Positions 37,426 to 41,221 of a DNA stretch of 64,000 bases are shown one piece after another. The stretch comes from Escherichia phage EAWsc9. A model generated the notes under the pieces. It did not search any database. It saw only the letters and a program-made list of their open reading frames with translations, and was not told the DNA's origin. Location of the stretch: the sequence record PQ341120.1; one strand, given 5' to 3'. A program made the translations under genes and the position numbers. The first letter of the stretch is position 1, and each line of letters starts with the position of its first letter.

Positions 37426-37447
37426 ACGTTTCTCTTTAGTTGATTTA

Positions 37448-37477
37448 TAAAAAAGCCCCAACCTTTCGGAAGGGGCT
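37448..37477 (-). terminator. intrinsic terminator followed by late-promoter-like TATAAATC
   Basis: minus strand AGCCCC...GGGGCT stem then TTTTTTATAAATC (plus gatttata 37442-37449). Confidence 0.5.
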
Positions 37478-37514
37478 ATACCTTGTCGGGGTTCCACCTG
37501 CAAGGCAAGTGTTC

Positions 37515-37898
37515 TTATCCGCGAGCGAATGCCATTGCAGCGCGTTCGTTGGCACGGTCGGTGATGTTCAAGAATTTATCACGAGCAATTTCGATTGGGG
37601 CGCCGACCCAGTCAGCAGCACCATTACCCGGAGACTGTTTAGGGCGAACCATATAAGTTGAAACTTTGGAACCAGCTAGTTTGGCACCTGGCGCCGCGGC
37701 ATTTTTAACGTCTTTAGCTTTGATGCCAAACCCAGTTACGATACCCCAAGAAACGCCATTAACTGGTTTCTTGAACATAACACGGTCACCAATTGAAACA
37801 CCGGCTTTTTCTGGAGCCACTAAAGAAAATTTACCAGCTTCAGTCAGTACGGATTCGGTGATGGTATTGCGATTTAAAAATTCTGCATATGTAAGCAT
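37515..37898 (-). CDS. internal-protein-like protein with degenerate capsid-targeting sequence
   Basis: 127 aa starting MLTYAEFLNRNTITE; exact late-promoter box TATAAATA upstream. Confidence 0.5.
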   Translation of the reverse strand: MLTYAEFLNRNTITESVLTEAGKFSLVAPEKAGVSIGDRVMFKKPVNGVSWGIVTGFGIKAKDVKNAAAPGAKLAGSKVSTYMVRPKQSPGNGAADWVGAPIEIARDKFLNITDRANERAAMAFARG

Positions 37899-37920
37899 TT
37901 TGTTTTTCCATTATTAGGGT

Positions 37921-37928
37921 TGTTGTTA
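37921..37928 (-). promoter_or_regulatory. late promoter box TATAAATA
   Basis: plus tatttata = minus TATAAATA, about 25 nt upstream of ATG at 37898. Confidence 0.5.
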
Positions 37929-38131
37929 ATATTTATATTCCATAGTACCGGATGCACCATCCGCTCGGATTTCTCATACTACCGGACGCACCGTCCGCTC
38001 TGGAAAAACTCCGTTAAAAGGGTGCGCCGTTTCAGCTGTGGTAGTAAAGAACCAGAACACAGTAAAACTGTGGGAGGAACTATACTTCAGGGAACTTCAG
38101 TCCGACGACTTACCGGTAGCGACCCGGTTTC

Positions 38132-38371
38132 TCATTCAATTGTAATAGCTAATTTGACTTTAACAACCTTATAATTGGAATCAAGGTCATTGAATTCCAT
38201 AAAATTTGTTGCTAATCTGCGAGTCGGGAAACTTAGATATTTATTATGCTCAGGTGGAGCAGTTAATGCAAACCATGGGACTTGTTTATCATTTTCATCA
38301 AACTCATCAAAGCTATAAACCAGCTCGTTGTTGGTTATATCCATAACTGCATATGATTCACTAATAACCAT
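38132..38371 (-). CDS. hypothetical protein downstream of tRNA genes
   Basis: ATG at 38371 behind GAGGA gives 79 aa; the longer track ORF would overlap tRNA-Arg. Confidence 0.3.
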   Translation of the reverse strand: MVISESYAVMDITNNELVYSFDEFDENDKQVPWFALTAPPEHNKYLSFPTRRLATNFMEFNDLDSNYKVVKVKLAITIE

Positions 38372-40948: not shown

Positions 40949-41221
40949 CTATTTTAAATAAATTGCATATTTTTTATAACCAGCCGTCTCATGACGGAGA
41001 CCCTTGTCATTGGCAAAACGCTCAATGTTATTAATTTGGTTCTGGTCAAGTTCTGAAATGTCAAACGCGAAAAAGTTGCGTTTGTTGCCAATTGTTATAT
41101 GGTCAGTTAAGTCAATGCTATACAGGTGATTGATATTGTCAATCATAGCTTTGACCGCTTTACTAATTTTTACTTCTTCATTCAGTTGTGACTCGTTGAA
41201 AAATTCATTGAAAGTTTTCAT
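40949..41221 (-). CDS. internal-protein-like protein with capsid-targeting sequence
   Basis: 90 aa starting MKTFNEFFNESQ. Confidence 0.5.
   Translation of the reverse strand: MKTFNEFFNESQLNEEVKISKAVKAMIDNINHLYSIDLTDHITIGNKRNFFAFDISELDQNQINNIERFANDKGLRHETAGYKKYAIYLK

Follow-up and report, generated by a model that had tools for sequence, protein, structure and literature searches.

Two covarying GUG hairpins between the rnaD gene and a late promoter in the T4-like Escherichia phage EAWsc9

We examined a short non-coding interval near the tRNA genes of Escherichia phage EAWsc9 (PQ341120.1), within a stretch of 64,000 nucleotides (nt) that we call the window. This DNA belongs to a T4-like phage of the genus Gaprivervirus, and its nearest records were ECML-359, pEC-M719-6WT.2 and the VR20 group. 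An initial annotation had flagged positions 37935-38130 as a single structured stretch with two tandem hairpins; the flagged interval is in fact two separate, unrelated minus-strand features, the small RNA gene rnaD and a spacer that carries the two hairpins (H1 and H2). All the genes around the hairpins lie on the minus strand, in the order tRNA-Met, tRNA-Arg, an open reading frame (ORF) of 79 amino acids (aa), rnaD, hairpin spacer, late promoter, a 127-aa ORF and a terminator. The features are as follows, with predicted folding energies:

38539-38464, minus strand: tRNA-Met(CAU), called by ARAGORN and by the Rfam tRNA model (62-74 bits for the two tRNAs)
38463-38387, minus strand: tRNA-Arg(UCU), called by ARAGORN and by the Rfam tRNA model (same range)
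38371-38132, minus strand: 79-aa ORF, full-length match to phrog_33509 (E=4.5e-57), annotated as a 240-nt coding sequence (CDS) in relatives
38135-38021, minus strand: rnaD, by homology to T4/T2 rnaD
38020-37938, minus strand: hairpin spacer of 83 nt (linker, H1 and H2), with no similarity to rnaC or rnaD
38020-38001, minus strand: linker CUUUUAACGGAGUUUUUCCA, which contains GUUUUUCCA at 38009-38001
37997-37983, minus strand: hairpin H1, CGGACG-GUG-CGUCCG, in repeat unit 37975-38000, -9.3 kcal/mol
37963-37949, minus strand: hairpin H2, CGGAUG-GUG-CAUCCG, in repeat unit 37941-37966, -7.9 kcal/mol
37937-37930, minus strand: late promoter TATAAATA, found by motif scan and unchanged in 13 relatives
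37898-37515, minus strand: 127-aa ORF from the ORF list, with an internal-protein-like N-terminus
37476-37449, minus strand: rho-independent terminator AGCCCCUUCCGAAAGGUUGGGGC followed by U6, -16 kcal/mol, common to T2L, HX01 and JS98

Both hairpins were present where they had been read on the plus strand (CGGATG-CAC-CATCCG at 37949-37963 and CGGACG-CAC-CGTCCG at 37983-37997). The late promoter, previously placed at 37921-37928, lies 9 nt away from that position, and the tRNA pair said to adjoin the interval is indeed nearby but is separated from it by the 79-aa ORF. The stop codon of this ORF overlaps the 5' end of rnaD, and comparison of the ORF with T2L trna.2 gave no detectable relationship.

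H1 and H2 sit inside 26-nt direct repeats with a spacing of 34 nt and 88% identity. A degenerate version of the hairpin motif was expected 0.12 times per 64 kilobases (kb) and was observed twice, and the whole VR20 genome also contained two copies only. We built a covariance model from the hairpin units and ran it over the whole window: the H1 and H2 sites scored 39.7 and 38.4 bits, and the next best site reached 11 bits. H1 and H2 differ by an A/G plus a T/C change; this difference, proposed earlier to be compensatory, is a true compensatory pair, and relatives added more double-sided changes. In particular, Gaprivervirus stems included CGGACG, CGGGCG, CGGAUG and CGGGUG, and those of the genus Kanagawavirus were CAAGCG/CGCUUG and UGGACG/CGUCCA. 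When the units were pooled (9 distinct sequences), 54 out of 54 cells formed standard pairs and 5 of the 6 stem positions had double-sided changes; the orthologous two-hairpin alignment gave the same covariation picture, with 84 out of 84 cells paired. None of 500 shuffles reached the observed level, and slid controls collapsed to 13-56% paired. For H1, an A-U to G-C double change occurred in 7 relatives and 3 of the 6 pairs covaried against Kanagawavirus, while H2 had a G.U variant in TH44 and TH40 and, in Kanagawavirus, pairs changed from C-G to U-A and from U-A to C-G. The absence of hairpins or of covariation from related genomes, which the initial annotation had named as refuting evidence, was therefore looked for directly, and the hairpins were both present and covarying. 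The GUG loop, the closing G-C pair, a 5' GAG and a 3' G were invariant in all 9 distinct units across the two genera, and almost every other stem position varied.

Only two changes were one-sided, an A to G in H2 of TH44 and TH40 and a C to U in the metagenome contig QZMC01000025. In either case the sense strand gains a G.U pair where the antisense strand would have A.C, with predicted energies of -7.3 and -5.5 kcal/mol for the sense stems versus about -2 kcal/mol for the antisense ones. Selection for RNA stem-loops is well supported by the comparative alignments, and the wobble pairs suggest that the sense strand is the one that folds.

The covariance-model search in Rfam that had been recommended matched neither rnaD nor the hairpins to any family, whether with the whole neighbourhood or with the 216-nt interval alone under lax filters; at E<=10, the interval gave nothing except one chance miRNA match. 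The hairpin module has no Rfam entry, and we did not find it described in the literature searched. Several other candidates for the spacer were tried and rejected. Outer stems around H1 (in the window) or H2 (in Kanagawavirus) were predicted, but they were not conserved between the genera. The AUGs after each hairpin were too distant from any Shine-Dalgarno (SD) sequence to open mini-ORFs, and their frames were not conserved. By eye, the spacer had no MotA-box middle promoter and no sigma-70 promoter with TAGTAT or TACTAT as -10 element; the promoter scan found none of the latter either, nor any sigma-70-like site in 37930-38020. A boxA-like CUUUUAAC, considered as an antitermination signal, was unconserved and broken by indels in relatives. 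An origin from host repetitive extragenic palindromic (REP) elements was rejected because none of 5,426 E. coli genomes contained a matching sequence, and a decoy made of type III antitoxin-like (ToxI-type) tandem repeats was discarded since there were only two repeats, no Rfam family and no E. coli genome match.

The hairpin pair is restricted to two genera. It was found in 15 Gaprivervirus phage records, 8 Kanagawavirus records, 1 further viral contig and 2 metagenome contigs. The spacer searched by blastn recovered only Gaprivervirus and, at low stringency, Kosakonia phage 305; further carriers were the Enterobacter phages IME523, Q7622 and CIP9, one IMG/VR contig and one metagenome contig. 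A two-hairpin pattern used on IMG/VR proved over-degenerate (its 120 matches were Gly-rich or collagen-like repeats). A second pattern, R/Y-constrained and linked to the late promoter, matched only VR20, CIP9, one Kanagawavirus-like viral contig, two metagenome contigs (one Gaprivervirus and one Kanagawavirus-like) and two chance sites (L146 and L152). The order in Kanagawavirus is terminator, hairpin, hairpin, (G)ATAAATA and an ORF starting MLNFNEF, and the rest could not be aligned with the window. The layout common to both genera is therefore a cassette of two hairpins, a late promoter and a gene starting M-L-x-[YF]-x-E-F. The hairpins are spaced by 34-35 nt in both; the late promoter begins 11 nt after the end of H2 in the window (31 nt before the ATG of the 127-aa ORF) and 8 nt after it in Kanagawavirus. 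Elsewhere in the Tevenvirinae (Mosigvirus HX01, Dhakavirus JS98, Karamvirus PG7 and Marfavirus Potts1), the late promoter stands 1-8 nt after a canonical terminator, the GUG hairpins are absent, and the gene served is a homolog of the internal-protein-like gene of Kosakonia phage 305 (218-aa ORF). We also observed that in HX01 and JS98 it is an exact TATAAATA that follows the terminator homologous to that of the window, driving the homolog of this Kanagawavirus-type gene.

The edges of the cassette could be placed by comparing phages with and without it. In the cassette-less Kanagawavirus PEi20 and ZX14, the terminator and GGGTATCT are followed directly by AGG and then by an early promoter of the promoter early stem-loop (PeSL) type and an e.7-like gene. 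In IME523 and Kosakonia phage 305, the terminator and GGGTATCT are followed by GAGC, which opens H1, then by H2, the late promoter, the gene, a second terminator and GGCATCT, after which AGG and the same early promoter return. The junction is the first base of the conserved GAG flank of H1. In the window, homology to T4/T2 ends at the last base of rnaD; beyond the 127-aa ORF's stop codon it starts again, at AACACTTGCC. Because rnaC occupies the same gap in T2L, the alignment indicates that rnaC is replaced in Gaprivervirus by the linker, H1, H2, the late promoter and the 127-aa ORF. Among 13 Gaprivervirus genomes, window positions 37511-37990 form a conservation island (identity 0.94-0.99 versus 0.72-0.86 in the flanks), which is consistent with a recent sweep of the hairpin-promoter-ORF block through the genus. 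Moreover, a 22-nt block, CCAGAGCGGACGGTGCGTCCGG, is identical between H1 of the window and H2 of Kosakonia phage 305 amid sequence that cannot be aligned.

These boundaries bear on a DNA-level explanation, in which the palindromes would be recombination handles or single-stranded DNA hairpins that mobilise the late-gene cassette and would have no RNA role. The coincidence of the Kanagawavirus boundary with the first base of the H1 unit, the shared 22-nt block and the near-identity island are what such an element would leave behind, and crossovers of PeSLs have been mapped within the stem-loop (PMC2839356). Homology-driven exchange, however, needs identity and not pairing, yet here pairing is kept while the sequence changes. 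Furthermore, one module copy per genome leaves no second partner in cis, the junction motif that repeats is terminator-GGNATCT and not the hairpin, and the wobble variants favour one strand, so that we regard this explanation as improbable. As to that motif, 'terminator + GG(G/C)ATCT | AGG' is found repeatedly where cassettes join in T2L and Kanagawavirus, immediately ahead of early promoters of the PeSL type (L001, ~330-345; L149 and L150, 1240-1250; L138, 1540-1555 and 2318-2330), and it looks like the actual short-homology exchange point.

The tRNA-proximal part of the flagged interval is a different element. Blastn with the interval matched 741 phage records, all but 15 of them only over positions 38021-38132, a segment that is 95.5% identical in T2L, whose tRNA-cluster record has the annotation 'rnaD, species II RNA' overlapping the matched sequence. 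The T4 annotation has rnaD beside rnaC, and the window sequence aligned end to end with T4 rnaD; the ends given above (AUGAGAAACC...GGCGCACC) were set by equivalence to that annotation. The 5' 45 nt and the 3' 25 nt were near-identical to T4 and T2L, and the central domain was of the T2L type. The consensus fold has a conserved 5' hairpin and a stem that closes the region after this hairpin with the 3' end, with one pair changed from A-U to U-A. The location also agrees, being in the tRNA cluster, on the same strand and distal to tRNA-Arg, and T2L has an ORF between tRNA-Arg and rnaD as well. Sequence and position alike identify 38135-38021 (minus strand) as the ortholog of T4/T2 rnaD, and its RNA would be made from the tRNA operon transcript. 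No function has been assigned to rnaC or rnaD in the T4 literature either (PMC3014915, PMC9697503), and accumulation of the small stable RNAs has been demonstrated for T4 only (PMC9697503).

Three side observations concern rnaD itself. Its central domain (window 38049-38100, minus strand; L011, L015 and L001) comes in two allelic forms that cannot be aligned: the T2L type with a short CACAGUUUUACUGUG hairpin, and the T4 type, whose hairpin is long and AU-rich. Both forms are found in Tequatrovirus and in Gaprivervirus, cutting across the genera, while the ends of rnaD stay near-identical throughout, a pattern that suggests recombinational exchange of an internal RNA domain. In addition, the 3'-terminal 8 nt of rnaD, GGCGCACC (38021-38028), are complementary to the loop and 3' arm of H1 (GGUGCGYC; 37983-37992, minus strand), a match reached by ~1.4% of shuffles and present in some predicted folds. 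Pairing of the rnaD 3' end with H1 was considered as a role for the element and rejected, as it was nominally unusual but not seen in Kanagawavirus. Finally, a sigma-70-like match, TTGTTA-16-TACAAT (window 38139-38166, minus strand), falls in the 3' end of the 79-aa ORF and ends 4 nt before the rnaD 5' end; the segment that bears it is missing in TH40.

The earlier suggestion of a small RNA like T4 species 1 or 2 therefore holds for the tRNA-proximal 115 nt, the rnaD homolog, and fails for the hairpins, which lie 3' of the rnaD end. The spacer could still be an independent small stable RNA of ~85 nt in place of rnaC (species 1 RNA), given that it occupies the position directly 3' of rnaD and is non-coding, conserved and structured. 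We consider this very unlikely: the spacer has no alignable similarity to T4 or T2L rnaC, including the tRNA-like 3' half, it lacks a terminator or a defined 3' end and runs straight into the late promoter, and its fold as a whole is not unusually stable. Kosakonia phage 305 carries an rnaC-like RNA in addition to the hairpins, and in every hairpin-bearing Kanagawavirus examined the hairpins come after a terminator. By sequence, then, the hairpins are neither part of rnaD nor a homologous replacement of rnaC. Separately, Kosakonia phage 305 (L016, 2262-2430) contains an unannotated structured RNA with an rnaD-like 5' end GAAACCCUGGUUGGUACCCAGG and a tRNA-like T-arm GUGGGUUCGAGCCCCAU; ARAGORN calls no tRNA there, and an rnaC-like 3' end lies upstream at ~2110-2157.

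The view that the interval holds no convincing ORF was borne out. Some GenBank records annotate a plus-strand ORF of 84 aa (37920-38174) as a CDS, and another record has a shorter plus-strand CDS, but among close relatives this 84-aa frame is broken by 1-nt indels and by the wholesale replacement of the rnaD core, a block of 50 nt. Hypothetical CDSs over rnaD and the spacer, on one strand or the other, were seen in OQ845958 (WMU95760.1), PP693301 (XAO54395.1) and MW233709 (QQG31067.1). Because of the frame-breaking indels, the CDSs annotated over rnaD and the hairpin spacer are very likely spurious. rnaD is a routine part of these genomes, and many of their GenBank records either lack an rnaD annotation or have spurious CDSs over it.

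We then considered what the hairpins may do. For PeSLs, the stem-loops beside promoters, attenuation of transcription has been demonstrated, as has their position at the points where cassettes are exchanged (PMC2839356, PMC4122927). Because the hairpins occupy the place that terminators take in other Tevenvirinae (1-11 nt before the late promoter), and by analogy with PeSLs, we tentatively propose that they are boundary stem-loops that attenuate or stabilise the ends of tRNA/rnaD transcripts and insulate the late gene, a possibility that we prefer without holding it to be probable. The spacer (38020-37938) would be the 5' border of a portable late-gene cassette composed of hairpin, hairpin, TATAAATA and an internal-head-protein-like gene. 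The hairpins would form in sense-strand RNA and, as the late start site lies downstream of both, only in transcripts that enter from the upstream unit of tRNAs, 79-aa ORF and rnaD. There they may attenuate read-through, supply a structured, exonuclease-resistant trailer to the untranslated stable-RNA transcript, or both, and the internal-protein gene would be expressed essentially from its own late promoter. Since rnaC and its direct link to its terminator are replaced in Gaprivervirus, no structures other than the hairpins stand between rnaD and the late gene. A terminator scan from the tRNAs to 37476 gave a single match, inside rnaD (38072-38058), and none after rnaD and before the late gene.

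A number of observations weigh against a boundary role. The strand call rests on two wobble events, which alone amount to only a ~1 in 4 chance expectation. Folding of the whole spacer gave no gain in stability over shuffled sequence (z = -1.2), and the stems are of modest stability, from -5.5 to -11.4 kcal/mol. H1 and H2 both lack a U tract behind the stem (their tails read GUAGUAUG and GUACUAUG) and the terminator scan calls neither of them, so that classical intrinsic termination by H1 or H2 is unlikely. In Kanagawavirus a terminator-like hairpin already stands immediately upstream of the pair, which would make a pure terminator role redundant there. Winklervirus and EcS1 keep a single degenerate unit and the flanking sequence and have lost the fold; the structure is therefore dispensable in some relatives. 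Finally, the invariant loop, closing pair, GAG and 3' G point to sequence-specific recognition, which would be superfluous for a passive barrier.

This last pattern is what would be expected if the hairpins were, in line with the binding or processing sites also considered in the initial annotation, recognition sites for an RNA-binding protein or endoribonuclease, of phage or host, that processes the rnaD 3' trailer or controls the downstream mRNA. The positions just named stay fixed in the 9 units while 5 of the 6 stem pairs change, the sites are in tandem at 34-35 nt in both genera, and the rnaD precursor must be cut somewhere near the spacer for release because no terminator follows rnaD. 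Nevertheless, there is no candidate factor and no known motif fits (the RegB site GGAG is absent within the units and no Rfam family matches), the invariant positions could reflect recent common ancestry of a small mobile module, and the fold was lost in Winklervirus and EcS1; recognition sites are in our opinion rather unlikely. A more specific version would make the GUG hairpins with their invariant GAG a new cis-regulatory RNA motif: a dedicated protein or nuclease would read it and couple 3' processing of the tRNA/rnaD transcript to expression of an injected internal protein, or else the motif would serve as an RNA decoy against a host defence ribonuclease. We consider this version unlikely.

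Another explanation for the same region is a translational silencer of the type of T4 e, soc and 49. In read-through RNA, GUUUUUCCA would pair with the SD region UGGAAAAAC, with H1 and H2 as arms of the junction closing a 90-nt loop; late transcripts start inside the loop and would be free for translation. GUUUUUCCA (38009-38001) is the exact 9-nt complement of the SD region at 37910-37902, a match reached in 14 out of 5000 shuffles, and the late promoter lies between the two pairing arms. The predicted minimum free energy (MFE) structure of a short construct starting at the rnaD 3' end is this junction, the SD of VR20 is predicted to be fully paired, and pairing survives as G.U at the sole position that is substituted in the SD arm (C to U in YenP8). 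Silencing of this kind has been described for T4 e, soc, 49 and I-TevI (PMC3014915). However, the ensemble predictions did not agree: over 17 nt of the ribosome-binding site the mean predicted probability of being unpaired was 0.53-0.65 in read-through RNA versus 0.60 in late RNA (window, TH54 and TH55); predicted SD accessibility was clearly different only in VR20, and among the MFE structures only that of the short construct showed the pairing. A competing local stem, CGGAGUUUUUC/GAGAAAUCCG, uses these bases too, and length changes of the U-run (TH54) and of the A-run (TH55 and MN01) are uncompensated. Since Kanagawavirus has the hairpins without an anti-SD, sequestration of the SD cannot be their conserved role, and a silencer in the window has little probability. 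We also noticed an 8-bp inverted repeat, GAAUAUGA/UCAUAUUC, which brackets the late start in Kanagawavirus, Winklervirus and EcS1 (L016, 2531-2560, and its equivalents in L138, L141 and L143). Its 3' arm abuts the Shine-Dalgarno sequence, so that folding of the repeat would be confined to read-through RNA; CBH8 has a G.U-compatible change.

We then focused on the late part of the cassette. TATAAATA is the gp55-dependent late promoter motif of T4; elsewhere in the window, two more late promoters are preceded by a UUCG hairpin at a distance of 4-9 nt. The 127-aa ORF starts MLTYAEFL and has LTE|AG further in. The motif M-x-x-[FY]-x-E-F is common to T4 IPI, IPII and IPIII, and we take it, together with LTE|AG, to be the capsid targeting and cleavage motifs of the T4 internal head proteins; the product would thus resemble these proteins through its N-terminal targeting motif. 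The 127-aa protein was 100% identical in 15 Gaprivervirus records (99.2% in one) and absent from every other phage record, with no Pfam or PHROG family. Five minus-strand ORFs of 84-127 aa in the window begin M-x-x-[FY]-x-E-F (starts at 41221, 40940, 40296, 37898 and 27366), three of them clustered at 40.3-41.2 kb, and no GUG hairpins were found upstream of the other four. The upstream regions of T4 ipI, ipII and ipIII were also compared; they have PeSL-type early promoters and lack GUG hairpins. The terminator at 37476-37449 is the first canonical one after the tRNAs; its homologs follow rnaC in T2L and HX01 and the preceding ORF in JS98. Directly after its U-run lies UAUAAAUC (37441-37448, minus strand; its first U is the last of the run), a late-promoter-like sequence with one mismatch that precedes a 185-aa ORF (phrog_2143).

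The hairpin module is a small, clean case of covarying RNA structure in a T4-like phage that is absent from Rfam and that travels with a late promoter and an internal-head-protein-like gene. In T4, the internal proteins enter the host together with the injected DNA, and some of them counteract host defences. If the boundary role were true, it would extend the PeSL idea of mobile regulatory cassettes from early to late genes, and would explain how a late gene can be placed behind a strongly transcribed stable-RNA operon without mis-expression. The 15-nt hairpin, with its natural compensatory variants, also offers a simple system for RNA 3'-end formation in T4-type infections.

Finally, we compared the locus with known systems. 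As in the rnaD-rnaC pair of T4 and T2, rnaD of the window is on the same strand downstream of tRNA-Arg, and the terminator region that follows is also that of T2L; in contrast, rnaC is missing and the spacer, late promoter and 127-aa ORF stand in its place with no shared sequence. The locus resembles T4 e, soc, 49 and I-TevI in having an upstream 9-mer complementary to the SD and a late promoter between the arms, but the loop is of ~90 nt with two extra hairpins, and the predicted pairing is not robust and is unconserved in Kanagawavirus. The rho-independent terminators of other Tevenvirinae share the position relative to the late promoter and the stable-RNA cluster as well as GC-rich stems, whereas the window has two short tandem stems with a triloop and without a U tract. 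Like the REP and bacterial interspersed mosaic elements of E. coli, the hairpins of the window are GC-rich palindromes repeated in tandem between cistrons, in sequence that is not translated, and could act as a barrier to 3' exonucleases; the differences are much shorter stems and a GTAG-like tetranucleotide on the wrong side.

The closest parallel was with the PeSLs (Arbiol et al. 2010; Comeau et al. 2014). In both cases one or more stem-loops lie directly beside a promoter at the edge of an indel cassette within a hyperplastic region, and the proposed role is to block spill-over of upstream transcription while carrying the gene's own promoter. Both are also found at indel or replacement boundaries, here the presence or absence of the cassette in Kanagawavirus and the replacement of rnaC in Gaprivervirus. 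The differences are that the promoter of the window is the late TATAAATA instead of a sigma-70-like early promoter (-35 of the GTTTAC type, and -10), that its stems are short with a fixed GUG triloop instead of polyG/polyC, and that the module is single in each genome (64-kb window and complete VR20 and CIP9 contigs), whereas PeSLs number dozens per genome. Genuine PeSL-type early promoters lie beside the cassette in Kanagawavirus. In our analysis, the hairpin pair is a real, covarying and locus-specific RNA structure that is best seen as the late-promoter counterpart of the PeSL idea, and the hairpin-bordered late-gene cassette is a modest variation on a known phage regulatory architecture.

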